In this document: positions 25,515 through 63,842 of the stretch, in pieces
Position numbering within the stretch: the first letter of the stretch is position 1
How the letters are laid out: every line of letters begins with the position of its first letter
Source: Planctomycetota bacterium
GTDB taxonomy: Bacteria; Planctomycetota; UBA8108; SXIK01
DNA length: 64,000 bases
Reading direction: 5' to 3'
Assembly (NCBI GenBank): GCA_965223845.1
Contig: CBDCXR010000004.1
Span: 6,113,252-6,177,251, forward strand
Translations under genes and position numbers: made by a program
The notes under the pieces: generated by a model
Told to the model about the DNA's origin: nothing
Database searches by the model: none
The model's input: only the letters and a program-made list of their open reading frames with translations

Positions 25515-28500
25515 AGTCCACTCGGAGCGGCGATGCCGCGCGCCCCCCTCCGTAGAGATAGTTCAAGAATGCGATTGGATCGTTGATCGCGACCGAACCG
25601 TTTCGATCGAAATCTGCAACCGATGGACAAACGATCGCGACCTCCGTCGCGCCTTCGCGCGCGCCGAAGAGATGGCGCAGCACGGTCACCGCGTCGGTGA
25701 CGTCGAGCCGACGATCGCCGTTCGCGTCGCCCGTCAAGATGTCGCGCGCGTACACGTACGCACCGGCCTGGCGGTCGGTTCCGTGTGCGGTTTCCACGAT
25801 GACATCAACTGAGTCTGCGCGCACGGCCGGAGGCGCGAGTCCGCGAAGATCCCCGCTCGGGAGGAGGGCGAGATCGAACAGTTCGCGCTCGCCGACGAGA
25901 ACGCGGGTTGCGCTCGTCAATCCCGCGCCCGTCACCGTGACGACGTCACCCCCGAGAACCGACCCGCGCGCGGGAAGGATCTTCGCGATCGCCGGCGGCT
26001 CGGAGCTCGCGAGTCCGCGCGCGCCCATGTCCGTTCCGTCGCGCCCGGTGCCGAGACAGGGAGATCCCGCGCGCAATCGGACGTCCCGCTGAGCGACGAA
26101 CTCGGGGTCGAGAGAGACGTTCTCAACACCCCAGAAATCCGGATCCGTGCCGAGATTCGATCGAGAGATCTCGAGCGTCGAATCGAGGTCGACGCTCACG
26201 TCGACGTCGTTGCCCCACACGATCGAGCTGTGGAACGTCCCGTGAGCCCCGAGCGCGCCGGCGGTCTTGACCAGGGCCGCTACGCCGTTCAGGCATCCCG
26301 TAACCGTGTTGTGGTCGCCCGTAGCCGTCGTCCCGTCCTTGAGGACGATCCCGTCGCGGCAGTCGACGATCACGTTCTTGCGAATGGAGGGCGATCCGAG
26401 GCCCTCGATCGAGATCGCGCGATCGCCGCAATCGATCATCACGTTTCCCTCGATCAGAGCGGAAGACGCGAGGAGGTCGATCCCATCGTCGCTTCCCCCG
26501 CGGATCAAGTTCCCGGCGATGCGACTCGCTCCCGGTTCGCGGTCGAGCTCCCCGTCGAGATCGATCGCGTCCTGGTCGCCGTGAACATCCTCGATCGTAT
26601 TTCCGGTCGCGATCACTGTCGACGTCACCCCGTGGATCGCTTCGCCGGTCCGCCGGAAAGTGCAGTCGGCAACCTCGAGCCGGCCGTCGATCGCTTCGAG
26701 GACGACTCCGGGAATCCCTTCGAAGTGGGAGTTCCGCACCGAGACGTTCCCCTTCTCATTTTCGATGAACGGTTTCGCGGGTGTCGACGGATCGAACTCG
26801 CCGCTCGCAAACACGAAGCGGACGTGCTCGAGGCGGCCGCGCGAACCGTTCAAAAAGTGGATGCGTTGGCCGCTGCCGCCGGGGATAGAAAGCCCGAACA
26901 CGATCGGTCGATCGGCGCTTCCCACCGCATCCAGGTTGCCGTCGACGAGAAGCTCGCCGCTCGGTGCAAGGAGAACGTGGGCCCCGGCGTCGATCCGGAC
27001 CGAAGCGTTCGCGGGCACCTTGAGGTCGGGTGCGAGGATCCAGGGCGCTCCGTCAGCCGCGAACTGGGTCTCCCCGGGAGGAAGCGTCGAAACGACGCGT
27101 TCGGGCGAGATGCGCTCGAGCGTCGCGTCGAGCCTTGCGATGGTCTCGCCGTCCTCGTCGAAGGCGCGGATGCGAAGCCTCCGGTCCGTGCGCGCGGAGA
27201 TCGCGATGCGCCAAATGCCGTCGACCGCCGAGTACTCGGCTTCCCGTCCGGCTACCGTCACCCGCGCCGCCTCCGCGGGTGGCGCCGTACCGGAGAGAAC
27301 AAGATCCTCGGCGATCGCGAAGAGTCTCCGGCCGCTCCCGACTCCGCCCTCGGCGACCGAGGCGCTCAGCGTGCGCTCGACGTGCCGGCGGATGAACGCG
27401 CTTCTCTCGCGGACGAAGGTGACGAACTCGTCCTGACCCTCGAGGTCGTACCCGCGCTCGATGCGGCGCGCTTGGCGAGCGGTCGCTTCGACGGTGAAGT
27501 GCGTCGAGACGAGATCGCGGAGCGTCCGGTAGTAGTGTCGTGAGTACTCGGGGATCTCGAGGAGACGACGGATCGCGGGCACGCTCGGGCGGACGAGCCG
27601 CTCCTCGGACTCGAGGTAGACGCTGTCCATGTCCCACGGAAGGAGCACGAAGCGCCCGCCTTCGGGCGAGTAGATGAAATAGTCGTCTCCCGTGTCGCGA
27701 TAGATGCCGCCCTCCTGATTGCTGAGCGCACCGTGCACGGCGAGAGTCTCTATCCATTGGCGCGCATCGATCCGGCGGGAAATCGTCGCCCGAAACTCGT
27801 CCTCGGGAGTCTCGCTGAACACACGGCATAGTTCGATGATGTCCGAGAAATCGCCGTCGCGCTCGTTCGTCTCCTTGTTGTAGTGCTCGACGTAGGCCGC
27901 GGGATCGTCGCCGCGATAATCGAATACCGCTTCGTCGCGGCCGCGGTAGAGATTGCCGTCGTCGTCGCTGAAGTGCCGGCGGAGGTACGCCCGATCGATC
28001 GGCTCGAGCTGGGCGTAGCGAGGAAAAAGCTGGCCGTCGAAGACGAGACGGACGAGGCGCGCGCGCGAGTAGGGAAGTCCCACGCGGCGCCAAAGATCCA
28101 TTCCCATGACTTGTCGGTGCGGCTGGAACGCATTGAGGAAGATCGTGCGGCCGTCGGGAAATCGGTCTTCGTCGCGAAAGCGGATGCGGTAGGACTTCGG
28201 ATCGAGGAGCCGCGACCCGCTCCCTCGGTAGCGAACGCGAGCGCGGTAGTACGCCTTCCCCCCCGCGATGAAGGTAGCGGGACGCTGGACGTTCGAGAGC
28301 GGATCCTCGGCGAGCGCGGCGACGTCCGCCGGCCGGAGAACGAGACGGTAGTCTTCGTCGAGCGGCGAGTCGCGGTCGGTGTCGACTTCGAAGAGTGCGG
28401 TATCCGGCTCGCCGCCGTAAGGGAACACGCCGCACTCGCGGCGCCCGCGGCTCTCGGGGCCGCAAACCTCGATCTGAAACTCGATCACCGCGCCGTCGAC

Positions 28501-30651: not shown

Positions 30652-33600
30652 TCGCACGGTGGAAACGCCTCGCAGGTGAGTCCGTCGTCGTCGGTCGGGT
30701 CGAATCCGCACGTGAGAAGCGGCGCGGGCGGCTCGCGTCCGTCCGCGAAGAGGTAGTTGAGAAGACCGATCGGATCGCTGATGTCGATGCCGCCGCCGTC
30801 TTCGATGTCGGCCGCATCGCGGCACACCGGCGGTGAGCCGTCCGCGAAGAGGTAGAGAAGTATGTAGAGTGCATCGCTCACGTCCGTCCCGCCGTCGGCG
30901 TTCGCGTCGCCGCGCTGGAACCGGACGGGTCCGTCCGCGCAAAACTCGTACGCGCCGGGATCGATTCCCGCACCGCAGGGACGAGCTCTCCCGACGAGAT
31001 CGAACTCCGGCGCCGATTCGCTCGTCCCGGCGTCGATGACCGGCGCGTCGGATGCGAGGCGGTAGTCGCCGATCGCGAATCGCTCGCCGATCCACTCGCC
31101 GGCGCGCACGAATCCCGGATCCTCGTTGCGGTTCCCCTCGCCCGGAAGCACGGCTTCCGTGCCCAAGGTCGAGTAGGTCGCGGAGACCTTGGTCTCCTGA
31201 TCCCACTCGGGAATGAACAGATCGTCGATCTCGTTGTCCCACACGATCGAATTGACGATCGTCCAATCGGAGTTGGCACTCGCTAGGCCGATCCAGTTGT
31301 CGGCGATGGTCGTCGAGAGGATCGTCGCCGTGCCGCCGTCGAGGTTGACTCCGCGGTGGAGATTGCCGACGACTTCGCAGTTTGTGAGTGAGACCGTGCC
31401 ATCGAAGCCGGACCACACTCCCGCGCCGTCGTTGTCGTGCAGGCGGCACTCGAAGAGAGACGCTTCCGCCGCGCCTTCGAGATAGACGCCGCCGCCGATG
31501 ACCTCGCCGTGAAAGGTGAAGCCTGCGTTTCGCGCCAGAAGCGAGGAGAAGATCTCGGTGCGCGCCCCGCCGCCGAGGTAAACCCCGGCTTCCGAGTTGT
31601 CGGCGATGGTGGAATCTCTGATTTCGATGACGGACCCGCTCAGCGCGAGGATCCCCTGCCCTTCGTTCGCCCAAACTTCGCTCGACACGAGTCGAGCCAC
31701 CGCGTTCATGCCAGCGAGAACTCCGGGGCCGACGGATTCGGCGACGACGGATCCTTCGATGGTCGCGTCGCCGTCGTGCGCGAACGCGACGCCGAGGCCG
31801 CGTCCGTTTCGCACCGTCACCCGGGCGAGCCTCGAGCCCGCCGAGAGACCGGTGAGCGCGCCGTTGAGCTCGACCTCGCTCGCGTGCGTTCCCGTGATGC
31901 TCGCGCGCTGAAGCGACACGCCCTGCGCTGCGTAGTCTCCCGGCGCGAGCTCGACCGTTCGGTGCTCGACGCCGGCGCTCGCGCACGTCTCCATCGTCGC
32001 GCCGACGTCGGTACCGCCTTCACCTGCACCGAGGCAGGGTGAGTCCGACGCGAGTGCGACGGAGAAGTCGAATGCGCTCGCGATCGGAGTCGGACCCGCG
32101 CGACCGGGATCCGGCGCGATCTCGAGCCTAGCGTCATCTCCCCAGCCGCAGAAGAGCGGTGCGTCGACGAAGTTTCCCGGTCCCGCCGGTGGCGAGTCGG
32201 CCTCGATGCACGAGTACGCGATCTCGAGAGTTCGCGGCGGGCTCGTGTTCGCGAGAAGGTTCCCGCTATCCCAGACGATCGATGATCGGATCTCGAGCCT
32301 GCCGTCGCGCACGATGAAGAACCCGGACCCGACCCCGGAGTTGCGCGCGAGCGTGCAGTGATCGAGGCGGAGGTCGCCGTTTGAGAAGAGGTTGAAGAGC
32401 CCGGCTCCGCTGGTGTCGAAGTTGCCGTCGATCGTTCCGCCGGACCACCGAATGGTCGTGTTCCCGCCGGTCACGATGCTTCCGACGGTTCGCGTCACGC
32501 GCCCCCCCTCGACTGTGAGGTCGGCGTCGCGGATCCAGAACGCAGTGCCCGAAACCGACTCGACCAAGGTGTCGCGGACGATCGGCGCGGCCCCCTCGGT
32601 GATCTCGACGAGGATCGCGAATCTCTGCGCGCCGCCGCTCAGCTCGCAGTCGTCGAAAACGGGCCGAGCGCCCGCTCGACAGCGAATCGCGGGACGCGTC
32701 GACGATCCAGCGCGGATCCTGCAACGCTCGACCGTCGCGTTCGAATTCACCCCGAAATCGAGCGCGCCGTCGCCGCCGGCGGCGAGGGTCACGTCGCGGA
32801 GGAACGCGCCGCTGCCGAGACCGCGCAGGGCGCCGTGGAGGACCGTGGTCTCGCGACTCTCTCCCGCGATGCTCACGCCGTGAAAGAGCGAAGCCGCTCC
32901 GACCTCGTATTCGCCGGCGGCGAGCATCACCGTTCGCGCATCGATCGTCTGGCCCGTGCATGAGCCGAGCGGCGCTCCCATGTCGCTGCCGTCCCGTCCG
33001 GCGCCGCGACAGGGCGAGCGGTTCGAGAGGGCGAGATCGAAGCTAGCGAGCGCCTCGGAGAGCGTTCGGTACGGTGACTCCGCCGAGCCGTCGCCGCCCG
33101 CCGGCGCGGATGCATCGACGTGCGCTTCCTCCGACGACCAACCGCAGAAGCTCGGATCGACATCGATGTTCCCCGTGCCCGTCCATCCTCCGTCGATGCA
33201 GCTGTAGGTGACGATCGGCGTCGAGTTCGGGACCTGCTGCTCGAGCGATTTTGGTCCGTTCGACCAAAGGATGGAGCTGTCGATCGTGACGGCGCCCTGG
33301 AGCATGTTCACGACGGGGCCGGTGTCGTTCACGTTCGCCGCGATCGTCGATTGCCGCACGGTGATCGTCGATCCGGTCCCGTTCGTGTGGAGCGCGCTCC
33401 CGGCCGAGAACGCGTAGTTCGACGCGATCACGCACTCTTCGACGGTGATGTCCGCCCCGGCGAGAGCCGAAACGCCGGCTCCGCGGTCGTAGGCCCGTGA
33501 ATCGTTCCCGGTGATCTCGGTCCCGCGCACGGTCGGCTGACTGCCGCTTGCGAGGATCCCGCCGTGGGAGTTTCCGCGCAATCGACAATCGCGGACGAGC

Positions 33601-35075
33601 GGGGCACGACCGGGTGCGACGAACACCCCGCCTTGAGTGCCGTCCGTCACGGTGACTCCGGCGAGCTCGGCACCCGACTCGAGTCCGCGTACCGTGCCGC
33701 GGAGCGTCGTCGAGTCCCGCCCCGCGCCGAGTAGAGAGACCTGATGGTCGAGCCCGCGTCCCGCGAGCGCGTACTCACCGCTCGCGACGTGAACGATGCG
33801 AGACTCGACCGGCGCGAGGTCACACTCGCCGGACGCTCTCCCGCGATTCCCGCCGTCGGATGCCGATCCGATACACGGTGAACCCGGCGCGAGGGCGTAG
33901 CTGTAGTCGAGTGCCGGCGCGAGGCGGTGGAACGGATTCGCCGCGGAGCCATCGCCCCCCGCGGGTGCCGCGGCGTCCACCCACACTTCATCGCCCCCGG
34001 CGGTCCACCCGCAGAAGAGCGGATCGCCGCGCAGGTTTCCCTCGCCCGGCCACACCTCCGGACTGTCGACGAGCGAGTAGCGAACGGTCGGCCGCGATAC
34101 TCCACCGTCGATGAGCGCGTCGGGCGCGTTTCCGAAGACGATCGAATCTTCTATGGCGAGCGTCGATTGGCGCGCGCTGATTCCTCCAGCGGTGCGGGTA
34201 GCGACGTTCGCGACGACCGTCACTCGCGTGAGTCGACCGGTCCCACCGTCGGCCGAGATCCCGCCGCCCGAGTCCGAATCGTTTCCTACGACGAGAGTGT
34301 CGTCGACGATCGCCTCGCCGCGTCCGGCGAGCCGGAGGGCTCCGCCGGCCCAGTTCGCCGAGTTGTGGCGGAACTCGCAGCCCGTGATCGTCGGCGCTGC
34401 GTCGTTTTCAATCGCGATGCCTCCGCCCATCGCAGCGGCGTTCGACTGAAATACGCATCCCGCAAATGTCGCGGCGGACTCGTCTCCGCACCAAGCTCCA
34501 CCGCCCATGAGATCGCTCGCCGCCGTCGTGCCGTTCCTCTCGAAGACACACGCTTCGAACCTCGGAGACGACGTACCGGCGATCCACACGCCGCCACCGC
34601 GAACGACGACGAAGCACCCCTCAGAGCAATCGACCTCGCCCTGCCCGCGACCGCCGGTGAGCGTGAGCCCGATGATCTCCGTAGCGGAAGTCTCGCCGCG
34701 CGTCGCGACGAAGACAGCCGCGCGGAGAGGATCGCGCGGCGTATCGGACATGCGCACGATCGTCGCCGCGGCTCCGGCTTCTCCGCGAACCCGGACGTCC
34801 TTCAGCGGAGGAGCGCTCGGATCACCTTCGACGTGGAGTCGATTCACGTCGAGCGGCTCGTCGATCACGTACTCCCCTGGCGCGATGAGAACTTCGTCGC
34901 CGCTCTGGGCCGCGTCGAGCGCACCCTGGATCGTCGCGTGGTCCGCGGGAACGCGGAGAATCTCGGCCGTCACTCTACCCGCGACGAGCTGAAGGAGAGC
35001 GAAAAGGAGCGCGGGGAGGATGGCGGGGCGACCGCGGCCGGGCTTCAGCCGGCGCGCGCGCGGGGAAATCATCAT
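30648..35075 (-). CDS. giant secreted beta-helix protein, Pmp-type repeats in at least three ~330-aa modules, dockerin-like C-terminus
   Basis: 1475 aa, signal ILPALLFALLQLVAGRVTA. Repeats: FQSNAAAMGGGIAI, FRHNSANWAGGALR, VVGNDSDSGGGISA. A module recurs with the pattern ...DP.FCGW...APAGGDGSA.P...L..AL....LA..SPC.G.G.DG.DMGA... Confidence 0.85.
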   Translation of the reverse strand: MMISPRARRLKPGRGRPAILPALLFALLQLVAGRVTAEILRVPADHATIQGALDAAQSGDEVLIAPGEYVIDEPLDVNRLHVEGDPSAPPLKDVRVRGEAGAAATIVRMSDTPRDPLRAAVFVATRGETSATEIIGLTLTGGRGQGEVDCSEGCFVVVRGGGVWIAGTSSPRFEACVFERNGTTAASDLMGGGAWCGDESAATFAGCVFQSNAAAMGGGIAIENDAAPTITGCEFRHNSANWAGGALRLAGRGEAIVDDTLVVGNDSDSGGGISADGGTGRLTRVTVVANVATRTAGGISARQSTLAIEDSIVFGNAPDALIDGGVSRPTVRYSLVDSPEVWPGEGNLRGDPLFCGWTAGGDEVWVDAAAPAGGDGSAANPFHRLAPALDYSYALAPGSPCIGSASDGGNRGRASGECDLAPVESRIVHVASGEYALAGRGLDHQVSLLGAGRDSTTLRGTVRGLESGAELAGVTVTDGTQGGVFVAPGRAPLVRDCRLRGNSHGGILASGSQPTVRGTEITGNDSRAYDRGAGVSALAGADITVEECVIASNYAFSAGSALHTNGTGSTITVRQSTIAANVNDTGPVVNMLQGAVTIDSSILWSNGPKSLEQQVPNSTPIVTYSCIDGGWTGTGNIDVDPSFCGWSSEEAHVDASAPAGGDGSAESPYRTLSEALASFDLALSNRSPCRGAGRDGSDMGAPLGSCTGQTIDARTVMLAAGEYEVGAASLFHGVSIAGESRETTVLHGALRGLGSGAFLRDVTLAAGGDGALDFGVNSNATVERCRIRAGSSTRPAIRCRAGARPVFDDCELSGGAQRFAILVEITEGAAPIVRDTLVESVSGTAFWIRDADLTVEGGRVTRTVGSIVTGGNTTIRWSGGTIDGNFDTSGAGLFNLFSNGDLRLDHCTLARNSGVGSGFFIVRDGRLEIRSSIVWDSGNLLANTSPPRTLEIAYSCIEADSPPAGPGNFVDAPLFCGWGDDARLEIAPDPGRAGPTPIASAFDFSVALASDSPCLGAGEGGTDVGATMETCASAGVEHRTVELAPGDYAAQGVSLQRASITGTHASEVELNGALTGLSAGSRLARVTVRNGRGLGVAFAHDGDATIEGSVVAESVGPGVLAGMNAVARLVSSEVWANEGQGILALSGSVIEIRDSTIADNSEAGVYLGGGARTEIFSSLLARNAGFTFHGEVIGGGVYLEGAAEASLFECRLHDNDGAGVWSGFDGTVSLTNCEVVGNLHRGVNLDGGTATILSTTIADNWIGLASANSDWTIVNSIVWDNEIDDLFIPEWDQETKVSATYSTLGTEAVLPGEGNRNEDPGFVRAGEWIGERFAIGDYRLASDAPVIDAGTSESAPEFDLVGRARPCGAGIDPGAYEFCADGPVRFQRGDANADGGTDVSDALYILLYLFADGSPPVCRDAADIEDGGGIDISDPIGLLNYLFADGREPPAPLLTCGFDPTDDDGLTCEAFPPCE

Positions 35076-38213: not shown

Positions 38214-40379
38214 TTAGTTAGCGCCCGGCGTTTCTGGCCCGGTGTACTCGAGGAGATGCGCGCGCCGGTAGTCGGCGAAGTTCTTGATGCCGATCTTCAC
38301 GCGACCACCGAAGCCGCTTTCGTTCGCGACGTCCTCGGTGAGGCTCTTCTCGAAGCCCTCCGTCGAGTCGAGCTTTCGCGTGTCGGATCGGACGACGTCA
38401 GCGATGAGTGCGCGGTGACGCTCAGCGATCGGGCCGAGGGTCTCCCAGTCGAGCCAGTTCTCGGCGATGTCTCGAACGTAGGCGAGATAGCGCGCGCGGA
38501 GCGAAGGCACGGCGAGTAGGCGCGAGAGAAGCGGCTTGCTCTCGTCGTCCTTCGCGATGAGGGGGTCGAGGTGGACCGCCTCCGGCTTGATCGGCTCGGG
38601 AGGTCGAGGTGGCCCGCCTCGTCCGCGCGGCGCGCCGAAGCCCGGCGGCGGGAGCTTCGAGCGGAGTCCGTTCGCGAGCTGCGATTCGCTCAGCGAGCCG
38701 CTCTTTTCGGCGTCGAACTCACGGAACCAGCTCGTGAGAAGTGCCTCGAGCTCGTTCTTCGTCAGTTCGCCGTTCGCGTCGGCATCGGCTGCGCGGTAGA
38801 TGCCGTCGCGCATGAATTCCTGGGGAGTCCCGCCCGGTCGCCGCGGTGAGTCGCTCTGACCATCGCCATCGCGTCTTGCGCGAAGAGCGTCGCCGAGCTT
38901 GGCGCTGAACGTCTCCTTTGAGACGGCGCCCGTTTTCTCGCTGTCGAGCGCTCCGAACCAGACTGCCGCGAGCGCTTTCATCTCATCTGCGTCGAGCGCT
39001 TGATCGCGATTGGCATCGGCCTGCGCCATGATCGCCGCCGCTGTCTGGCCGCGTCCCATCATGCGCGCGCCTCCCCGACCGCCGCGCGGGCGGCTCGGTA
39101 CCGCGAACGTCTCATTCGTGTCGTGCGGAATGATGTGAAACTTCCCCTTCTCGTCGAGATAGAGGTTGTAGTCGCTCGAGCGAATCCAGTAACCGTCGTT
39201 GCTGACGAGCACGTTCTCGAGCGCGAGGAAGCGGAGCGCGCCGTCGATGTCGAGAATGGGGTCGAGCGCGGCTTCGAGCTCTTCCGCCGGCGTTTCAGTG
39301 AGCGTCTTACAGAGTCTCACGAGCGCCGCCCAGGCTTCGGGGTCCTCCTTCGAACGGATGCTGTACGCTCGGCGGTAGTCGTCGACGTCGTCGCTGATGT
39401 AACCGAGCGTCGCTTGTCCCCGCGGGCTTCCGGGCGTCTTCCACCGCGTGCCCTTCGTCGTCCCGAACCACTCCTTGATGAAGTCGCGATTGAACTGCTG
39501 CTGGTTGATGTAGATGCCCCAGCTTTCGCCGTTGATCACGAGACGAACGAAGTTCGCTTTCGTCGCCGGAACGTATCGCTGTGCTATGTGGCAGAAGAGC
39601 ACCGAGCGAAGGAAGCTCGGATCGCCGTGCGAGTTCAGAAGATTGAGCGTTCGGTAGCCGTAGAGACGCTGCTTCTTCTCGACGAAATCCATCGAGAGGT
39701 TGAGCGAGCGCTTGAATCCCGCGCTGACCGCGCCGAAGGACGATGCGCCGCGAAAGTGAACCCCGACGTTCGGATACGCCTTGCCGTCCACGGTGAGCGT
39801 TGCCGGGACGTCGACGTCGGTGTTGTTGAAGTCGGCGAGCTCGGCTTCCCAGTCTTCGCTCTCGAACTCGAGAAAGAGTGTGCGGAGAACGCCGGTGTCG
39901 TAGAGCGGGGCGTCCGGATACCAGGTGACGTCGGACTTGGCGACCTTCGGTCCCGGTGCGGGCGGTTCGGCCGGCCCACCTCGGCGCGGGAACCCGCGGC
40001 GACCGCGACCGGCGGCGCGCTCTTTGGCGAGATGTTCCCGTGCAGCTTTTCGCTCTTCGGCGTTCAGTCGACCGCTTTCATCTTCGTCGAACTGCTTCAG
40101 CAGCTCGGTCTGGCGTCCGAATCCTCCGGGTCCGCCTGGACCCCCCGGGCCTCCAGGGCCACGCGGACCGCCGGGGCCTTCCGGTCCTCCGGGAGGGCTT
40201 CGGCGCCCTCTCCGTTCGGGGCGATCCTCCCGCTCACGCTCGTCTTCTTTCGGGTCTTCCTGCGCGACGGCGTCGAGGGACTCGGATGCGGGCCAGGCGG
40301 GTTCGGGCGCGGATTTGACGGTGCCGGAGAGGAGCGCGCAAATGCCGATGACCGCGGAGCGGGTGAGGAGGGAGCTCAT
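38214..40379 (-). CDS. CotH kinase-family protein with Gly-Pro repeat and EF-hand-like loops, secreted
   Basis: 721 aa, signal SAVIGICALLSGTVKSA. CotH core: TLTVDGKAYPNVGVHFRGASS...LNLSMDF...YRTLNLLNSHGDPSFLR...FVRLVINGESWGIYINQQQFN. EF-hand-like DEDESGRLNAEE, DANRDQALDADEM, DADANGELTKNEL. GGPEGPGGPRGPGGPGGPGGPGG repeat. Confidence 0.8.
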   Translation of the reverse strand: MSSLLTRSAVIGICALLSGTVKSAPEPAWPASESLDAVAQEDPKEDEREREDRPERRGRRSPPGGPEGPGGPRGPGGPGGPGGPGGFGRQTELLKQFDEDESGRLNAEERKAAREHLAKERAAGRGRRGFPRRGGPAEPPAPGPKVAKSDVTWYPDAPLYDTGVLRTLFLEFESEDWEAELADFNNTDVDVPATLTVDGKAYPNVGVHFRGASSFGAVSAGFKRSLNLSMDFVEKKQRLYGYRTLNLLNSHGDPSFLRSVLFCHIAQRYVPATKANFVRLVINGESWGIYINQQQFNRDFIKEWFGTTKGTRWKTPGSPRGQATLGYISDDVDDYRRAYSIRSKEDPEAWAALVRLCKTLTETPAEELEAALDPILDIDGALRFLALENVLVSNDGYWIRSSDYNLYLDEKGKFHIIPHDTNETFAVPSRPRGGRGGARMMGRGQTAAAIMAQADANRDQALDADEMKALAAVWFGALDSEKTGAVSKETFSAKLGDALRARRDGDGQSDSPRRPGGTPQEFMRDGIYRAADADANGELTKNELEALLTSWFREFDAEKSGSLSESQLANGLRSKLPPPGFGAPRGRGGPPRPPEPIKPEAVHLDPLIAKDDESKPLLSRLLAVPSLRARYLAYVRDIAENWLDWETLGPIAERHRALIADVVRSDTRKLDSTEGFEKSLTEDVANESGFGGRVKIGIKNFADYRRAHLLEYTGPETPGAN

Positions 40380-56062: not shown

Positions 56063-56776
56063 ACGCTAGCTCCGACCGTTCTTTTCCCGCGGGCAGCGGA
56101 GCCGAGGCAAGCGTACGAAATCGAAAACCTTCCGCCCGCGCGGGGCGCGTCCAGGCGAAAGGCGCCTTGGGAAGTCCGCTGCGATCTGTCCGAGTTGTTG
56201 GTTCTCCCGGGTCTGGGGAAGTGGGTCCACGCCAGTTCGGGACTCGGCCATCAGGATACGCGGTCGGGTGGGTTGGGGGTATGGGTTTTTAGGGGAACGC
56301 CCCTGTGAAGCAATCGTAAATGCCGTCGCCATGGGGGGATGCGGGCGGTCGGTGAACCCCCGTTCCCGGCGGTCATCGATCGCGAAGACGTGGTTGACGG
56401 AGGCCGTCCGGGTGGGAGCGACTCCGCGAATCCGAGAGCCCGGAATCGAGGATCCGGGTCGGCCCGCGGGGGCGTCTCTCGGCCGGGGAGCGTCTCGAAT
56501 CTGTGTCGCCGCCGTGGCGGTCCCGGTTGCGCTCCGCTCGAGCTCAGTCGCCGATAGCGGAGTTCAACGAATCGTCGGGCGACGTTCGACGTGAATGAGC
56601 TCGAGGCCGGGACGATTTCGCCCGCACTTAGCTAGCCCGTTGTTCGGGGCGGCGTTCGTCGATGGCGGCACAAGGAATGTTAAGCTGTAAGCCTTACCTC
56701 AGTCGGCATAGTTCGCTCACTCAAGATCTTCTCGAGCGGGCGAACGAGACTCAATCCCACTTTGGTGAATGGGCAG

Positions 56777-59700
56777 ATGGACGAACAACTCGATGTCATC
56801 AATCAACTTTCTGAGGCCTGGCAAACCGGGCACGCGATCGTTCCATTTCTCGGGGCGGGCATCTCGATCGGTGCGGGAGTGCCGACGATTTCGCAGCTGA
56901 AGGAATACTTCGCGAAATTCAGATTCTACGTAGAGAACGGAGCATACGGTCCTTCCGATCGACGGTTCAAGTTTCGCGGGCAAGCTGCCGCCAATCCCAG
57001 CGAGTACCTAACGGATTTCGGCTGGCCCGATCCCTACCAGCTCGAAGCGGACTTGTGGTACTGGTTTGACGAGTCGCATCGGTCGAACCCGGATAAGCAC
57101 CTGCCGTGCGGACGCGATCAGCTCGACAAGGTCGTGCAGGACACGATACTTCGCGAGATCCGTCATGAAGAGCCGGGTCTCGTCGATGCGATCCGACGCG
57201 GAGCCCACCCGATCTCCGTGTCTGGAAACTGGCACGCTCTCCTGGGACAGCTAACCGGTGGCAATCTCGACTACGTCGACGCACTCTTCGATCGGTTGTC
57301 GAAGGGCCGGGAACCTGGCGCTGCACACACCTATCTCGCGTTTCTCTCTCAGTTGATGGGATGGCAGCTCTTCCTGACGATCAACTTCGACAGTCTTCTC
57401 GAAGAGGCGCTGCGCGCGGAGGGCTTGGTGCCAAAAGTGTTCGATGTATTTCGTGACGCTTCACTTCCGCACGACTCGCTCGTAAGAGGGCACCTCGCCG
57501 TAGTCAAGCTCCACGGCGGGGCGTACGGACTCAGGACAGGTGAACGGCTTGACTATGCCCTCGAACCGGAGAGCCGCGATCGTCTACTTCGCTATATTCC
57601 GATCGACGGCATCGTGTTGGTACTCGGCTTCGGTGGCTCCGAGCGACGGATGACCCAGCTCATGGAGCAGCTTATCATCCGCGGCGGCTCGGCAAGAGGA
57701 CCCTATCCGAGCGTGATTTGGCTCTATGCCGAGTCGACACCCCCGCCCGCACTCGTATGGCTCCAAGAGAGGGCTTCGAGTTTTGGAAGCGACCGGGAAC
57801 GAATTCTCCGCTCTTGTCGGATCAGCGACGCCGGGCGGTTTCTGAACGAGCTCTACTGTCGCGTCGCGAGTACGCATCCGGCGGGTGCTCAGATGTACCC
57901 CATCGGCAGCGTTCGCCCGATCGGCGTGAGCGCTCGCGTGGAAACACTCGCTCCGAGCGACGACGGGAAAACCGAGAGCGAGTCTGGAGGCGAGGCGAAC
58001 GGTGACGGAAGACTCCGCGAGCCCGCGGCGACCGCGAAACTGGAACCGGACGCACGGCCTGACGAAGGAGTAGATGACGGCGGACAAACGGAAAATGAGA
58101 CCGAGGACTGGGCTGAATTCGTCGAGCGTCCCGTGCAGATTTTCACCTCCATCAAGTCAAGCGATGAAATCGGAACTTCTTCGGAGCTCGAGAGTTCGGT
58201 GATGATGACAGAGTTCGTGGCTGAGCTCGGCCCTCGGTACCGAACCATTTGGATTGATTTCGAGCAACACCACACAGTCGACGGCGTCGTCACGGAGATT
58301 GTCGATCGGCTTCGTCAATACGACACGGCTCTCGCGCCATTCGTCGTTCCGTCCGGTGACGAAACAAGAGAGAACTATTCCTCCGCCGTCCGTCGAGTCC
58401 GCATGGCGCTGAGGAGGGGCCGGTACGTACTCGCGTTTGACTCGGTCGCGGCGTTTGCCCGCCCCGAAACCGTTCACCACGGCGTCCCGGAGTGCCCCAC
58501 AGATCCTGAGAAACAGGACGACGAGTCCAAACGTCTAACGAGGCGGGTCGGCTCGTTGAATTCGTTTCTCACCGAGCTGTGCGCGATTGGCGTAAAAGAC
58601 TCGCGGGTCGTTGCTGCAGAAGCGATCAAGGACAGCTATTTGTGCATCGCCGTCGACGAGCCTAGGAGCCGATTCGGTAAAGACCCGAACGATAAACACC
58701 TAGACATCGTCCGTTCCGCGATCAGCAAGTTCTACAAAGAAGCCGACCGGGAATCTAATAAGAAGCGAGAGCAGGGATTGGCGCCTCCGCACGTCGCGCT
58801 GCGAGGGCCACTGCACGCGAGCGCCATGCCGAGCCCGAGTCCCCCCCCGAACGTTTGCTCGGCGGAACTCATTCGCGGTTATTTGCGACGGGGCATTGTC
58901 GAACCGAGCGACGTCGGTTCGTCGCTGACGAGCACCGCGCTTCTCATTCTCTCGTTCTTCCGCAAACCGCCAAGCGTCGTGGCGGTGCGCTCGTTGCTAG
59001 CGGACGCGTGCCCGCTAGAAAACGATCTCGCGCCTCAGCAGAGGCAAGTGTACGCGAAGATCGACAAATTGCTTGAGGACCTTCAGAGCGAAGGCCATCT
59101 CGCGCGCCTCGAAGGGGGTGCGTACTGGATTAGCCGAATCAAGCGAGATCTCGTCTATGAAAGTTGGTTGAAGCTCTCCTACCCTTCCGAAGTTCGAAAT
59201 CTCTGCAAGCAACTGATTCCAATGCAGCAACTCACGGTCGAACAAGATGACTTGGTCCGAAACACCGCGATCGAGCTTTTCTTTGTTTGCACCCAGCACA
59301 GACGAATCGCGAAGTACTACTACACGGAGCTCTTCTTTGCCTCGAAAGACGTCGGGGCGTTCTTCGAGTATCTTTACCATCGGGTTTCATCGATCCGCTA
59401 TTTGCGCTTGCTCCAACTGCTAGTTGTATCGACGAACTCCAGAAATTGGATTCGAGAGAGAATCCGCCCGACGACGGAAGCTCCTCGATTTTCGGGGGAA
59501 GATCCACTGGAAGCGTTCGGGGGATCCTTCGACGAACTCCTCAAAGTGAACGACGCATCCGTCGTGTACTCGGAGCTCGTAGCGTCCGAGATTCGTTCGC
59601 TGCGCCAGACCCTTCACCGAGAGCGAGAATCGATTCTCGCGAGTGCGCCGGCCGACACCTGGATCGGCTGGATTCGCCGAATCGAGACGCACGATCTCGA

Positions 59701-61564
59701 CGATTTTCGCTTCGCCCTGAGTCCGCTCAAATCATCGGACGGCGTCGAGATAGAGAGAGACGATCCCGTAACGACGGCCTGCCTTGATTTGCGCCGGGAT
59801 CTTCAGGATCTGCAGGCGAAAGTACTTCGGGAGAAGGGCGACTATAACAAGTGTGTAGACTTGCGGTCCGAACAGATCGGTGCGGTTAGCACACACTCAA
59901 TTGCAGAGTGGATCGACCGTGCCAACTGGCTCCGCGATCAAGGGACCTGCTTGGTCAGCCAGTTCAGATACGACGATGCAAGAAACCGGTTCGACCAAGC
60001 TAAGGAGGCGCTGACCGAGGCGGAACGTGCTCGGAGGGAGGCGAACGGTGCGTCCAGCGACGCGGACGATTCGTACGCGCGGCGGATCGGGACCGCCAGA
60101 CTTTCCCTGCTATTTCGGCGCATCGTGTTCGATCTGAACGACATCAATCCATGGGAATTAAAGGGACGGAATCGATTCGGAACTTCAGACCCGATCACAG
60201 AGGTGCACCGGTTGTGCGAGGACGCGCGAGTTCGTTGCGTGGCGGGTCAACGGGACGTTCGACGGACAATCTACACACGCGCGGCAGATTACGCCGACTT
60301 CCGTTGCTATTTTCTTACGCTCGAAGCGAGAGCGCTCTATCTACAGGACAAATTCGCCCGAGCGCACGAACGGCTTGATCGAGCAGAGGCTGGATTGAGC
60401 GCTCACGACGCGGTTCAGCGTCAGGGTCTCGCGGTAGTGCTGCTTTCTCGTGCCGAGTGTCTTCTCTTAAGCGCGGATCAAACCGTTGAGACTTATGCGA
60501 ACCGTGTTGTCAGACGTCGAGCCGGGCAAGAACTGAACTACGTGCGGTCTTCGCAACTTTCCGTGTTCGCTTTGCAAAATGTTCTCGAATCTGTGGGGAT
60601 CGAGCCGCGTGATAATGACGCCTACCACCAACTAACAGGACTCGCTATCGACGCCCCACACGACGGTGCTGCGCTTGAAACTCTCAAGGAGATCGCGGCG
60701 GAAAGACCGATCGATCGAATGCGCCTTGGCGTAGAAGAGCCCGGTCTCGTCCAGCGCGCACAAGAGTTGCTGGAAAAACGCAAGAGAATTCAACGCGCAA
60801 TGCCGACGGATATCACGAAGTTGTCCTTCTGCGAGTGGCGTGACTCTCTGCTCAACGACTCTGCCGGATTACTAGACGAGGCGGACCATCGCGCGTGCAT
60901 CGCGCGCGCCGACCGCAAGCTTTGGCGAGCAGAAACCTGCCTGGATCAGGCGGAACGATTGTTCACCCGAGGACGGCGCAACGTCTATTGGTGGCATCAG
61001 CTGTATGTTCTTCGGGTCCAGCTTTACATCGAGCGTCTGCTCCTCGAGATGACCGCTCGGACGAAGGCCTTCGGCGATACCTGGCCGGAGTTCGTCGTTC
61101 GCTTCCAGCAATGTGTTCGCGGGGCACTCAACGCGATTCGAAGTGCGCGAGATACCTTGGCTCGCCCGCGCCGTGAGGGCGGCGGCGGTCGCCGGGCTCG
61201 CAGGACACACCTTCGAGCCCTTTGGCTCGAGCTCATGCTGTGCTCGTGGTACCTCAGCATCACAATCCAAAAATCCCTCGACGACGACCCTAAACACAGT
61301 CACCGACCGTGGTTCTACATCATCGGAAGCGGGTCACACGACGTTCTTTGGGATCGATGGAAATGGATGAACGAATCCTCGGGGAACCGAGACTGGGTGC
61401 AGGGCAATGTGGACGAGATTGTCCTGTCTCTACTCGAACGGAGTGCCAAGGACGTCGAATGGTACCACGGTCATTCGATCCGCTCGCGCGCCAATCTCCT
61501 CCAGGTCGTGAACCGCGCATTTGGCGCGGACGACATTAAGAGTCTTATGGAGGAATCTCAGTAG
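56777..61564 (+). CDS. SIR2-domain giant protein (SIR2_2-type N-terminus + long helical/TPR-like region)
   Basis: Track ORF starts at TTG 56762. I prefer ATG 56777 (MDEQLDV...). SIR2_2 motif series: AIVPFLGAGISIGAGVPT, FLTINFDSLLEEAL, LAVVKLHGG, IVLVLGFGGSERRM. An acidic linker follows, then ~1,100 aa of helical repeats. No P-loop is visible. Confidence 0.8.
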   Translation: MDEQLDVINQLSEAWQTGHAIVPFLGAGISIGAGVPTISQLKEYFAKFRFYVENGAYGPSDRRFKFRGQAAANPSEYLTDFGWPDPYQLEADLWYWFDESHRSNPDKHLPCGRDQLDKVVQDTILREIRHEEPGLVDAIRRGAHPISVSGNWHALLGQLTGGNLDYVDALFDRLSKGREPGAAHTYLAFLSQLMGWQLFLTINFDSLLEEALRAEGLVPKVFDVFRDASLPHDSLVRGHLAVVKLHGGAYGLRTGERLDYALEPESRDRLLRYIPIDGIVLVLGFGGSERRMTQLMEQLIIRGGSARGPYPSVIWLYAESTPPPALVWLQERASSFGSDRERILRSCRISDAGRFLNELYCRVASTHPAGAQMYPIGSVRPIGVSARVETLAPSDDGKTESESGGEANGDGRLREPAATAKLEPDARPDEGVDDGGQTENETEDWAEFVERPVQIFTSIKSSDEIGTSSELESSVMMTEFVAELGPRYRTIWIDFEQHHTVDGVVTEIVDRLRQYDTALAPFVVPSGDETRENYSSAVRRVRMALRRGRYVLAFDSVAAFARPETVHHGVPECPTDPEKQDDESKRLTRRVGSLNSFLTELCAIGVKDSRVVAAEAIKDSYLCIAVDEPRSRFGKDPNDKHLDIVRSAISKFYKEADRESNKKREQGLAPPHVALRGPLHASAMPSPSPPPNVCSAELIRGYLRRGIVEPSDVGSSLTSTALLILSFFRKPPSVVAVRSLLADACPLENDLAPQQRQVYAKIDKLLEDLQSEGHLARLEGGAYWISRIKRDLVYESWLKLSYPSEVRNLCKQLIPMQQLTVEQDDLVRNTAIELFFVCTQHRRIAKYYYTELFFASKDVGAFFEYLYHRVSSIRYLRLLQLLVVSTNSRNWIRERIRPTTEAPRFSGEDPLEAFGGSFDELLKVNDASVVYSELVASEIRSLRQTLHRERESILASAPADTWIGWIRRIETHDLDDFRFALSPLKSSDGVEIERDDPVTTACLDLRRDLQDLQAKVLREKGDYNKCVDLRSEQIGAVSTHSIAEWIDRANWLRDQGTCLVSQFRYDDARNRFDQAKEALTEAERARREANGASSDADDSYARRIGTARLSLLFRRIVFDLNDINPWELKGRNRFGTSDPITEVHRLCEDARVRCVAGQRDVRRTIYTRAADYADFRCYFLTLEARALYLQDKFARAHERLDRAEAGLSAHDAVQRQGLAVVLLSRAECLLLSADQTVETYANRVVRRRAGQELNYVRSSQLSVFALQNVLESVGIEPRDNDAYHQLTGLAIDAPHDGAALETLKEIAAERPIDRMRLGVEEPGLVQRAQELLEKRKRIQRAMPTDITKLSFCEWRDSLLNDSAGLLDEADHRACIARADRKLWRAETCLDQAERLFTRGRRNVYWWHQLYVLRVQLYIERLLLEMTARTKAFGDTWPEFVVRFQQCVRGALNAIRSARDTLARPRREGGGGRRARRTHLRALWLELMLCSWYLSITIQKSLDDDPKHSHRPWFYIIGSGSHDVLWDRWKWMNESSGNRDWVQGNVDEIVLSLLERSAKDVEWYHGHSIRSRANLLQVVNRAFGADDIKSLMEESQ

Positions 61565-61676
61565 TCTCTCTTCATCGATCTCTTTTCACGTCCCCCGCAC
61601 CTCTACCCGCCTAGCCCTCTGCGAAGCGGCCTTCGGCATCATCACTTGCAGCACGCCGTTTTTCAGCTCCGCCCCC

Positions 61677-61928
61677 GTCTACATCATCGGAACCGGGTCG
61701 CATGGAGTTCTGTGGGATCGGTGGAAGTGGATGAATGAGTCCTCGGGAAATCGAGACTGGGTGGAGGACGACGTCGAGGAGCTCGTTCATTCTCTCCTTG
61801 CGCAAGGCGCGAAGGACGTCGAAAAGTTCTACGGTCATTCGATCCGCTCGCGCGCGAATCTGCTCCGCGTCGTGAATCGCGCGTTCAACGAGCCGGAGGT
61901 CAGGCGGCTCATGAGCGACTCCGAGTGA
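61677..61928 (+). other. orphan, diverged but intact duplicate of the last 83 codons + stop of the SIR2 gene
   Basis: VYIIGTGSHGVLWDRWKWMNESSGNRDWV...GHSIRSRANLLRVVNRAF...LMSDSE aligns without gaps to FYIIGSGSHDVLWDRWKWMNESSGNRDWV...GHSIRSRANLLQVVNRAF...LMEESQ (61313-61564). It is in a different frame from the main gene. Its only in-frame start is TTG 61521. Confidence 0.85.
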
Positions 61929-62120
61929 TCTCTCCTTGGATTCGTGAAATCGCTCGCGGGCGATCCGGCGTAGGGCTTGTCCCAGAGAGCGGCGCTTGAC
62001 CGCCGCCTCACGCAAAGCTCTCCGGCCGGTGCGGAAGCGCGAACCGGCCTGAGCTCGGTTTCGGCGAGTTGGTGACGCCGGTCGGCGTGGCCCGGAATCT
62101 GAAACCCACGTCCCGTTGGC

Positions 62121-63842
62121 TCAGGTCACCTCGTGAGCTAGAAGCTCAATCGACGCATCCCCTCGAGCCGTCCAACCGATCCACAGGCGTTCGCCGAAGT
62201 GAACGAGGCACGGCGACTGCTTCGACTCCTCGCGCAGCGCGACCCGGTCCGTCCACGAGGAGCCGTCGTCACTCGTTGCGAGGTGGATTCGTGCGCTCTC
62301 CGCATCGCGCCAAGCGAGAAACAGTCCCGTGGGGCCCGCCGTGAGCGCGACGGGAGCATCGGATTTCCTTCCGATCGCCTTTTTGGGGGAAAACGCTCCT
62401 CCCGTTCGCGTCGAGGTCCACAAGCGGTCCGCTGCATCGCCCCAGACGAGGACGAGGCGATTCCCGAGCGCCGCGAGCGCCGGTCCGGTTCGCGTCGTCC
62501 AGGGCAGCGTCGTCTTCGCGCTCCAGGTTCGACTGTCCGTCGACTCGATCATGCTGATTCGATTGCTTCCTCTCGCGCGCCAAGCGCAGAAGACTCGATT
62601 CGGTGAGGCGGCGAGGGTGGGTGGGGACGCCGTTCGCGCGTTGAGCGACGCGTCCGGGCCCCAAGCCGTGCCGTCCGTCGAGCTGATCACGCGGAGCTCT
62701 CTCGTTCCGTGGCTCGCGTAAGCGACGACGTACGACCCTCCAAACGAGACCGCTGCGGGAGCGAGGCGTGTCGCCGCCCCGAGTCGCCGGATCGTCCCGA
62801 AGGTCCGCCCGTCCGTCGAAGCACGGCATCGTATCCGGCCCGTGACTCGATCGGACCAGACGAGCAATAGCTCCCCGGGTCTGGCCGCCAAGGCCGGACT
62901 CGCGCGACTGCCCGTGCGAAGGCCGACTCTCTCCGTCAATCGAATCTTGAGCGTCTCTGCGACTTTCGTCATGTGCTTTGCCGACGCCTGCTCGCGCTGG
63001 CCAGGTTTTTCGCCGGCAAAATGAAGTCCCACCGCTGCGTGACTCGAGGCCTCGAGCCAGAGGGCTCCGGAGTCGCCCTTCTTCGTGAGCTCGCCACCCG
63101 AGCTTGCCGGAACGATCGATAGTTCGTGAGTCCCGACGCCGTCGATGACGCCCTCGGTCCGCCCGGTTTTCGCGCCCGATTTGATGACTCGCATTCCGAT
63201 CGCCGGTGGGACGACGCCCGTCACTCCTCCCGGAATCCCCACGATCCCGCGCGACGCTTCGCGTTGGTTCCCGAGTTGAGCGACCGCACAATCGAGTTCG
63301 CGGTTGGAACGAAGCACGCGGGCGATGCGATCCCCGACGGCGGTCGTGCCAGGTTGCGTGACCCAATCGCCTCGCGCGCCGTTCGCGCGGGACCGCACGA
63401 ATACGTGGTGATTCGAAAGAACGAGTGAATCGCCGGTCGCACGATCGATCACGACCGCGCCGATCGTCCCCTTCTGATCGAGGCGAACGTTGCGAGCCTG
63501 GCTACCGCCGACGATCGGATCGAATCGTTCCCCTTCGTGCAGATCGATCGACGACTCGATGACATCGACGGGGATTCCGAAGATCGACCGAGGAATGCGC
63601 TCGGCTCGAGGCAGCTTCGCGAGGTCGACCTTCTTGCTCACGTACGCACGGAGACAGATCTCGCTCGTCATCCGTCCGTCGACCCAGCGGTAGCCAACGT
63701 CGACGCGCTCGACTCCCGCCCTCCGGAGCAATCGCTGGCGGTGCGTTCGCAGTCGCTTCAAGTGGCGCACCATCTCTCGGTCGGTGAGCACGGCGACTGG
63801 TCCGCGTCGACGGCGTCGCTTGGACTTCTTCGCTTTCCCCAT
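62121..63842 (-). CDS. trypsin-like (S1) serine protease fused to Asp-box beta-propeller, no signal peptide
   Basis: 573 aa. Basic N-terminus: MGKAKKSKRRRRRG. Putative triad: SNHHVF / LDCAVAQ / KKGDSGALW. The C-terminal half has about 6 blades with STDGRTFG, STDGTAWG, STDSRTWS, SDDGSSWT and recurring P.LA....L.L.W. Confidence 0.75.
   Translation of the reverse strand: MGKAKKSKRRRRRGPVAVLTDREMVRHLKRLRTHRQRLLRRAGVERVDVGYRWVDGRMTSEICLRAYVSKKVDLAKLPRAERIPRSIFGIPVDVIESSIDLHEGERFDPIVGGSQARNVRLDQKGTIGAVVIDRATGDSLVLSNHHVFVRSRANGARGDWVTQPGTTAVGDRIARVLRSNRELDCAVAQLGNQREASRGIVGIPGGVTGVVPPAIGMRVIKSGAKTGRTEGVIDGVGTHELSIVPASSGGELTKKGDSGALWLEASSHAAVGLHFAGEKPGQREQASAKHMTKVAETLKIRLTERVGLRTGSRASPALAARPGELLLVWSDRVTGRIRCRASTDGRTFGTIRRLGAATRLAPAAVSFGGSYVVAYASHGTRELRVISSTDGTAWGPDASLNARTASPPTLAASPNRVFCAWRARGSNRISMIESTDSRTWSAKTTLPWTTRTGPALAALGNRLVLVWGDAADRLWTSTRTGGAFSPKKAIGRKSDAPVALTAGPTGLFLAWRDAESARIHLATSDDGSSWTDRVALREESKQSPCLVHFGERLWIGWTARGDASIELLAHEVT

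Follow-up and report, generated by a model that had tools for sequence, protein, structure and literature searches.

Receptors of the STAND/NLR type (signal-transducing ATPases that have numerous domains; NLRs are receptors built around a nucleotide-binding oligomerization domain, or NOD) are generally thought to need nucleotide binding for activation. Among the described systems closest to the gene discussed here is Avs5 (AVAST type 5), a single-gene NADase in which a SIR2 domain is followed by a NOD and by repeats; its NTPase is of the nSTAND3/AAA+ type, and mutation of the Walker A lysine abolishes defense in both EfAvs5 and PaAvs5 (PMC11897194; 10.1101/2025.07.08.663546). The antiviral protein SAMD9, its relative SAMD9L and the bacterial Avs9/Avs6 share a core of SIR2, STAND-like NTPase and tetratricopeptide repeats (TPR) (PMC12680541, PMC5445408). 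Inactive STAND modules (iSTAND, iSTAND2; Kaur et al. 2020/2021) occur in prokaryotic conflict systems (PMC8195603), and a figure legend describes degenerate Walker motifs in KpAvs8 (PMC13581612, Extended Data Fig. 11 legend). Here we describe a gene for a 1,595-amino-acid (aa) protein in a 64,000-nt stretch of DNA from a Planctomycetota bacterium (contig CBDCXR010000004.1, positions 6,113,252 to 6,177,251 of the forward strand; hereafter the window). We put a probability of roughly 0.6 on the reading that it came by horizontal transfer and encodes an abortive-infection sensor that works as a single gene, depletes NAD+ and has a switch independent of nucleotide, a reading based on sequence comparison and predicted structures.

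The gene and the parts of its product, where pLDDT is the predicted local distance difference test score of the structural model, are as follows:

56777 to 61564, plus strand: whole gene, 1,595 codons and a TAG stop, for a protein with the predicted order SIR2, linker, NOD-like module, α-solenoid
56777 to 57916, plus strand: SIR2_2 NADase-type domain, aa 1-380, from the PF13289 match, invariant motifs and Foldseek
56852 to 56866, plus strand: NAD loop G26-A-G28-I-S30, a GAGxS motif
57383 to 57385, plus strand: catalytic N203
57389 to 57391, plus strand: D205, of the catalytic set
57512 to 57514, plus strand: H246, of the catalytic set
57926 to 58111, plus strand: acidic disordered linker, aa 384-445, with pLDDT below 50 for aa 384-436
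58112 to 59176, plus strand: NOD-like module, aa 446-800, modeled as an α/β domain of five strands, then a helical domain, then a winged helix
58148 to 58192, plus strand: eroded P-loop site, aa 458-472, in the loop between β1 and α1
58424 to 58441, plus strand: Walker-B-like strand Y550-D555 (in RYVLAFDSV), from DSSP of the model
59177 to 61561, plus strand: C-terminal, TPR-like α-solenoid, aa 801-1595, 795 residues, all-helical by DSSP

Judged from its sequence, the N-terminal domain is a genuine SIR2 domain of the defense-NADase (SIR2_2) branch with an intact catalytic set. A preliminary description of this DNA, made from the letters alone, had quoted four strings as a SIR2_2 motif series, and all four are present in the translation: AIVPFLGAGISIGAGVPT at aa 20-37, FLTINFDSLLEEAL at aa 199-212, LAVVKLHGG at aa 240-248 and IVLVLGFGGSERRM at aa 279-292. 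Pfam SIR2_2 (PF13289) matches aa 198-313 above its cut-off (E=2.8e-6; 27.9 bits vs 24.5) and also matches every one of the 31 homologues scanned (best E=2.5e-12). A word-indexed search returned 48 homologues of 883-1,832 aa, nearly all metagenomic, with 25-41% identity over the best local alignment and 18-35% over the full-length alignment. Conservation of the catalytic residues in a proper alignment had been named beforehand as a test of the SIR2 claim, and in the 49-sequence alignment that includes the query the invariant columns are G28, S30, G34, P36, N203, F204, D205, K244, H246 and G247. N203/D205 and H246 stand at the positions of the catalytic Asn/Asp and His of NADase-type sirtuins. 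When motifs were counted on 174 family proteins, the SIR2 motifs were found in 136-148, the rest including short proteins and some with other N-terminal domains. The domain also carries a family-specific helical insert at aa ~38-195.

Structure prediction places the domain in the same company. AlphaFold2 models were made on family alignments for aa 1-800 (pLDDT 80; predicted template-modeling score, pTM, 0.84) and aa 470-1595 (pLDDT 83, pTM 0.87). In the first, pLDDT of the SIR2 domain is mostly above 85, and the top 50 solved structures listed by Foldseek are all defense NADases, with SPARSA Sir2-APAZ (8y80) first at E=1.4e-9, followed by ThsA, KomC, DSR2 and SIR2-HerA. In PADLOC v2 the SIR2-domain models match (PDC-S65, Aga_SIR2, pAgo, ThsA and LmuA), the candidate model PDC-S65 over aa 175-247 only and the ThsA models over aa 169-248; no Avs, DSR1, DSR2 or NLR model matches the protein. 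NCBIfam has no match to the 1,595-aa protein. By profile and fold, SPARSA Sir2-APAZ, ThsA and PDC-S65 are the nearest relatives of the SIR2 domain, but the likeness is limited to that domain (aa ~8-305), and there is no APAZ or prokaryotic Argonaute (pAgo) partner here. Thoeris ThsA was set aside on the same grounds, with only its SIR2 part matched, no SLOG domain and no adjacent TIR/ThsB gene. SIR2-HerA (Nezha) and SPARSA were likewise rejected, there being no adjacent HerA helicase or short pAgo and no partner in 14 homologue loci.

The acidic linker noticed in the preliminary description coincides with the disordered aa 384-436 of the model, and the corresponding stretch of the 49-sequence alignment is gap-rich and weakly conserved. 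The ~1,100 aa beyond it had been taken as helical and TPR-like throughout. That description fits aa ~801-1595, the α-solenoid, which has a weak Pfam match to TPR_12 (aa 1014-1079), and fails for aa ~446-800, which are modeled as an α/β domain with a winged helix. DSSP of this module gives β453-457, α473-484, β489-494 and, with further elements between them, β550-555, β621-626 and β673-676, after which come helices and then a winged helix whose β-hairpin (776-784) carries a conserved EGG.YW. This order of predicted elements is compatible with a nucleotide-binding domain followed by a helical domain and a winged helix, and the Walker-B-like RYVLAFDSV pointed out earlier does map to a strand of the α/β domain. 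Conserved family motifs run through the module: IWIDLE, YDP.LPP, RGRY.LAF[DN], FGRPPT.HHG and, in the wing, EGG.YW.

Foldseek was run with the whole model of aa 470-1595. The best match is a Pyrococcus STAND-TPR protein (6mfv; E=4.7e-5, probability 1.0, 800 columns), human SAMD9 (9zjs) ranks third among solved structures (E=4.2e-4, 834 columns), and the further matches are generic TPR/HEAT solenoids, with DSR2 at rank 41 (E=0.055, probability 0.15). No solved Avs5 structure is among the top 50 matches listed for either model, and a Foldseek search against viral structures gave nothing at E<=0.001. We think that aa ~446-800 are quite probably a pseudo-NOD of the STAND type; the assignment rests on predicted fold and topology, because no sequence link to any NTPase was found. 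On these models the protein is laid out as SIR2-NOD-repeats, in the manner of Avs5 and SAMD9 (SIR2-STAND type). The earlier view that the sensor region fits no known subtype thus gives way to a STAND-like layout by predicted fold, and holds in that the P-loop is missing.

GxxxxGK[ST], reported absent in the preliminary description, is indeed found nowhere in the protein nor in any of the 174 family members, and the P-loop site has no GK[ST] in any of the 49 aligned members. The β1-α1 loop, the position of GxxGxGK[ST] in STAND proteins, is variable in the family (e.g. 'dyG--lGAS'). In one member, P0273, the sequence at this site is 'GKTLGEGTST', which we read as a P-loop relic. At the end of the Walker-B-like strand stands one D or N, then G, S or A, with no second acid. 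The family thus lacks both the Walker A and the Walker B (hhhhD[DE]) motif of the STAND NTPase superfamily. The family-specific motifs are strongly conserved around the eroded site, which argues that the module is under selection and not decaying; since the loss is common to the whole conserved family, it would be an ancestral, selected state rather than recent decay. With the Walker A loop absent, the switch is expected not to depend on ATP. The literature that we searched gives no account of a SIR2 fusion to a module that lacks the P-loop throughout its family.

Composition and a second, partial copy of the gene suggest how it arrived. The background was taken as 520 non-overlapping windows of 4,788 nt in the 64-kb stretch. 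The gene has 58.4% G+C against a mean of 65.5% for equal-length windows (standard deviation 1.7, minimum 62.0; z=-4.1), the lowest of any window of its size in the 64 kb, and its tetranucleotide distance is the largest in the window (0.31 vs a median of 0.15). G+C at third codon positions (GC3) is 0.66, compared with 0.69-0.87 in neighboring genes. The lowest-G+C windows start at 56601-57001, putting the left edge of the patch at ~56.6-56.8 kb. The AT-richer patch described earlier is thus real and coincides with the gene, which is extreme on both measures.

Just downstream lies a direct repeat of the gene's 3' end:

61678 to 61934, plus strand: orphan, diverged repeat of the gene's 3' end (final ~85 codons, stop and ~6 nt)

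The repeat (61314-61570 and 61678-61934) is 257 nt long, gapless and 75% identical. The orphan is in frame from 61656 with its own stop at 61926-61928, and its translation is 66% identical to aa 1505-1595 (E=6e-38). Homology starts abruptly at 61314/61678 (codon ~1513) and ends ~6 nt past the stop. Differences between orphan and gene fall 12, 15 and 37 at codon positions 1, 2 and 3, with a ratio of nonsynonymous to synonymous divergence (dN/dS) of ≈0.20 and dS≈0.94; this low ratio and the third-position bias argue that the two copies diverged as functional genes and not by decay in place. GC3 of the orphan is 0.78, which is host-like, vs 0.67 in the gene's own tail. Its closest relative is the gene itself (70% aa identity), the next family member being at 31%, and no such tail was seen in the nine other loci examined. 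The orphan seems to be what is left of an allele or paralogue that was displaced. On the simplest reading, an allele incoming from a lower-G+C relative would have replaced an older, resident homologue except for its 3' end (the last ~85 codons), and the present copy would be that incoming allele; an alternative is that tandem paralogues were followed by deletion. The orphan might record, or enable, the swapping of sensor C-termini between alleles, and may still recombine with the gene in the manner of orphan toxin tips. It offers a case in which the replacement of an allele at a locus of this kind can be dated.

The gene is missing next to the oxidoreductase operon in two relatives, whose α subunit shares 80-82% identity. 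In these two nearest relatives different genes lie upstream of the operon; synteny there is not conserved, so no precise insertion site can be defined. A scan of species-representative genomes with the single protein gave no match; with a 15-sequence alignment it gave 8 loci, and the named hosts are Planctomycetota (Isosphaeraceae, Planctomycetaceae) and Acidobacteriota (Thermoanaerobaculia, Pyrinomonadaceae). Composition, the orphan tail, the two relatives that lack the gene beside that operon and this patchy two-phylum spread all support recent horizontal acquisition; horizontal acquisition had been proposed at the outset. The earlier interpretation was largely right on both effector type and horizontal origin, and incomplete on the sensor, which by predicted fold is NLR-like.

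How, then, does the protein compare with the known systems? Like Avs5, it would combine in one polypeptide an N-terminal SIR2 domain with a catalytic Asn, a NOD-type center (here by predicted fold) and a helical-repeat sensor (TPR, Sel1 or pentatricopeptide repeats). Avs5 has a canonical Walker A, however, whereas none of the 174 members here does, and our protein, at ~1,600 aa, has a longer solenoid. It was not assigned to Avs5, because it has no Walker A, no Pfam match to nSTAND3 and no match to an Avs hidden Markov model of PADLOC v2. SAMD9 and Avs9 differ in having an N-terminal AlbA_2 nuclease, a C-terminal OB fold and a P-loop NTPase, none of which is found here, where the sole candidate effector is a SIR2 domain that keeps its catalytic residues; a SAMD9/Avs9-like identity was rejected because AlbA_2 gives no match, the SIR2 domain begins with residue 1 and the C-terminus is all-helical. 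The iSTAND and iSTAND2 modules and KpAvs8 are alike in being STAND-derived sensor modules with eroded NTP-binding motifs. The former serve as third component in MoxR-vWA ternary systems, with no fusion to SIR2, and they were excluded since there is no adjacent MoxR or vWA gene and no Pfam match to such a module. In the KpAvs8 family the other members keep the motifs, whereas here the loss is family-wide.

What we infer for the protein, namely NADase activity, a phage trigger, oligomerization, nucleotide independence and a defense role, can be put together as a rough proposal. The C-terminal α-solenoid (aa ~801-1595), presumed to be the trigger-binding sensor, would bind the trigger, most likely a phage protein, much as Avs sensors wrap phage proteins (PMC13581612). 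Binding would relieve autoinhibition through the central NOD-like α/β and winged-helix module (aa ~446-800), which would then drive self-association. Self-association would turn on the SIR2 domain (N203/H246) and NAD+ would be hydrolyzed; the loss of NAD+ would abort the infection, with the infected cell ceasing to support phage growth. The switch would be independent of ATP and in that respect more like DSR2, in which ligand binding opens the NADase directly. The gene appears to work as a single-gene unit, because no neighbor is conserved in the 14 homologue loci.

Several observations weigh against this proposal. On the side of the module, the TM-scores of the Foldseek matches are low (0.10-0.21) and the TPR part could dominate the alignments with 6mfv and SAMD9. 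No Pfam NTPase (nSTAND3 or other) matches any of 31 members, a Pfam search with the NOD-like region's family consensus yields noise only, with NB-ARC at E=4 (a match that falls in the Walker-B register), hhalign of the family profile against E. coli MalT gives a probability of 0.2, and a sequence-profile search of the PDB finds nothing beyond the SIR2 domain at E<=1. No Avs model of PADLOC v2 matches the protein or its 31 homologues, and no DSR model matches the protein. On the side of the defense role, tblastn against plasmid and phage collections found no relatives, and the 64-kb window contains no other defense gene, nor was a mobility gene seen in it. About 10 of the 14 homologue contexts consist of housekeeping genes; only one is a clear defense island (DISARM) and one a mobile-element context. 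Some family members also carry Ser/Thr kinase domains, which are typical of signaling proteins as well.

The points concerning the module bear most directly on an alternative in which the protein is a defense NADase of DSR2/DSR1 type and not NLR-like, with a long helical ligand-binding scaffold and an unrelated Rossmann-like subdomain. The STAND likeness would then be an artefact of TPR-to-TPR matching, and a ligand would directly open a pre-formed oligomer, with no NOD-type oligomerization. The undetectable NTPase profile and motif and the low TM-scores to 6mfv and SAMD9 favor it, and so does what DSR2 shares with this protein, which is a single gene, an N-terminal SIR2 NADase (SIR2 fold match at E ~4e-6), a long helical sensor region at the C-terminus and no NTPase. 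But DSR2 is only ~1,000 aa long, with a HEAT-like, tail-tube-binding C-terminal domain and no α/β plus winged-helix module. For the C-terminal part it ranks far below 6mfv, the first match, as given above, and the PADLOC Dsr2 model matches 1/31 members, weakly (E=0.008); DSR2 was rejected as an assignment on these grounds, and DSR1 because no Dsr1 model appears among the PADLOC matches of the protein or its 31 homologues. The β-α-β order, the Walker-B-like strand, the arginine after β4 and the winged-helix hairpin are moreover placed as in a NOD, and one member retains the G..G.GTST relic at the P-loop site. We consider this alternative unlikely and retain the NLR-like sensor as the preferred reading.

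The genomic contexts raise a different possibility, that the protein is a non-immune signaling or regulatory scaffold in the cytoplasm of planctomycetes and acidobacteria, its TPR region recruiting cellular partners and its SIR2 domain acting as a protein deacylase, an ADP-ribosyltransferase or an NAD(H)-sensing module. The neighbors at most homologue loci are housekeeping genes, many STAND-TPR proteins are transcriptional or signaling regulators, and Ser/Thr protein kinase domains are found in two members: in P0273 the kinase is inserted after SIR2 and followed by the solenoid, and in P0289, which has no SIR2 domain, it interrupts the family module, standing between the start of the pseudo-NOD and the rest. 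(In a third variant, P0275, the family module is preceded, at the N-terminus, by the C-terminal portion of an nSTAND1 NTPase.) Against such a role, the domain belongs to the SIR2_2 branch and its nearest sequences and folds are defense NADases, not deacetylase sirtuins. The gene is also a compositional outlier with a scar of replacement, and the family is patchily spread across phyla, with two separate copies in one metagenome-assembled genome (the Thermoanaerobaculia genome DATANP01; L015 and L017) and, in another from Planctomycetota, a homologue split into overlapping frames of 979 and 824 aa (L012:7896-13062), which is due to a frameshift or an assembly error. Finally, one homologue lies inside a DISARM/helicase island. 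On balance, a signaling role seems rather improbable.

That island deserves a closer description. The homologue (P0011) is directly 3' of a complete set of DISARM core genes, drmA (E=9e-207), drmB (E=7e-86) and drmC (E=2e-25), at L003:1875-7637, and 5' of a GajB-like/NERD-UvrD helicase (L003:13223-15307), so that by its gene content the locus is a defense island. A protein exceeding 2,200 aa, in which DEAD, Helicase_C and MZB domains occur, is likewise encoded 3' of the homologue. Elsewhere, the homologue of L004 adjoins a tyrosine integrase, a serine recombinase and a transposase fragment, and that of L005 lies between direct repeats that are 84-98% identical and spaced 7.05 kb apart (L005:5812-6950 and L005:12873-14003). 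The repeat unit of ~1.2 kb consists of a Band_7 gene and two small ORFs (open reading frames), a TIR-NB-ARC-WD40 gene lies ~4 kb downstream, and with this locus the surroundings of a family member are seen locally duplicated for a second time. Across the 14 loci there is no conserved neighbor or partner gene; nor is a small partner gene conserved downstream, where the ORFs of L001, L002 and L003 are unrelated.

A decaying or silent relic, in which the eroded P-loop would be one part of a general loss of function, is very improbable: the NTP-binding motifs are lost, a homologue fragment adjoins the gene and a homologue in another genome is frameshifted, but the 1,595 codons are uninterrupted, the SIR2 catalytic residues and module motifs are invariant or nearly so across sequences only ~25-35% identical, and the P-loop loss is family-wide in a strongly conserved family.

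The family itself is large. A protein-library search with a profile of aa 446-1595, from which the SIR2 domain was excluded, and with representatives taken as 50%-identity clusters, gave 667 representatives at E<=1e-3, 465 at E<=1e-10 and 293 at E<=1e-30. The matched proteins are nearly all 1,400-1,800 aa long and the match begins at about residue 400-500, so that in nearly all clusters the ~400-500 residues ahead of it would leave room for a SIR2 domain. We tentatively suggest, at rather less than even odds, that these proteins (at least 293 clusters) make up an abundant clade of their own among NLR-like immune receptors, one that has dispensed with the nucleotide switch and in which a pseudo-NOD assembles a SIR2 NADase without ATP. 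Surveys seeded on NTPase profiles would have missed such a family, and PADLOC v2, NCBIfam and Pfam recognize nothing in the protein beyond its SIR2 domain. If it is active, a NOD scaffold can act as a ligand-gated assembly module without nucleotide, and a large unannotated family poses the mechanistic question of how a NOD works in that way. If the defense reading is true, the anti-phage repertoire would extend further into Planctomycetota and Acidobacteriota, phyla that are barely covered by current catalogues of defense systems.

As for the gene and its surroundings, the ATG start at 56777 and the TAG stop at 61562-61564 on the plus strand bound a reading frame that is open throughout its 1,595 codons; the mechanical ORF start is a TTG at 56762, five codons 5' of the ATG. 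A full-length homologue (P0002) aligns over 99% of the query at 31% identity. Upstream of the gene there is a gap:

56063 to 56776, no strand: non-coding gap of 714 nt between the divergent oxidoreductase operon and the SIR2 gene

The preliminary description had put this gap at ~700 nt, and neither a Pfam-matching ORF, an Rfam match nor a tRNA is found in it; nor does it contain a sigma-70-like site or a repeat. Rfam, tRNA and promoter/terminator scans of the gene's flanks gave nothing above background. The gap is host-like in composition (64.3% G+C) and long relative to the gene-dense window, and it presumably holds the promoters of both divergent units. The genes before it, a 2-oxoacid:ferredoxin oxidoreductase operon among them, run on the minus strand; that they lie opposite to the SIR2 gene had been described. 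The direct neighbors of the SIR2 gene are the oxidoreductase α subunit and a BNR-like protein. The latter is encoded by the convergent downstream gene (62121-63842, minus strand, 573 aa), which has a host-like 65.6% G+C and whose product gives sub-threshold matches only, to the NAL1 N-terminal domain and BNR_2 sialidase-like repeats.

Farther away, a PSCyt1/PSCyt2/PSD1 protein at 3636-6932 of the window carries planctomycete marker domains, and a contig of a close relative carries PSCyt2/PSD1/DUF1501 genes. Very large proteins, predicted to be at the surface or secreted, are encoded in a cluster at 22779-35075 and 38214-40379 on the minus strand, which is unrelated to the SIR2 gene finding. 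It includes β-helix/NosD/Chlamydia-PMP repeat proteins of 911, 2,159 and 1,475 aa, two of its ORFs overlap mechanically, and two of its proteins have CotH kinase domains, one together with a lamin-tail domain and the other with EF-hands.

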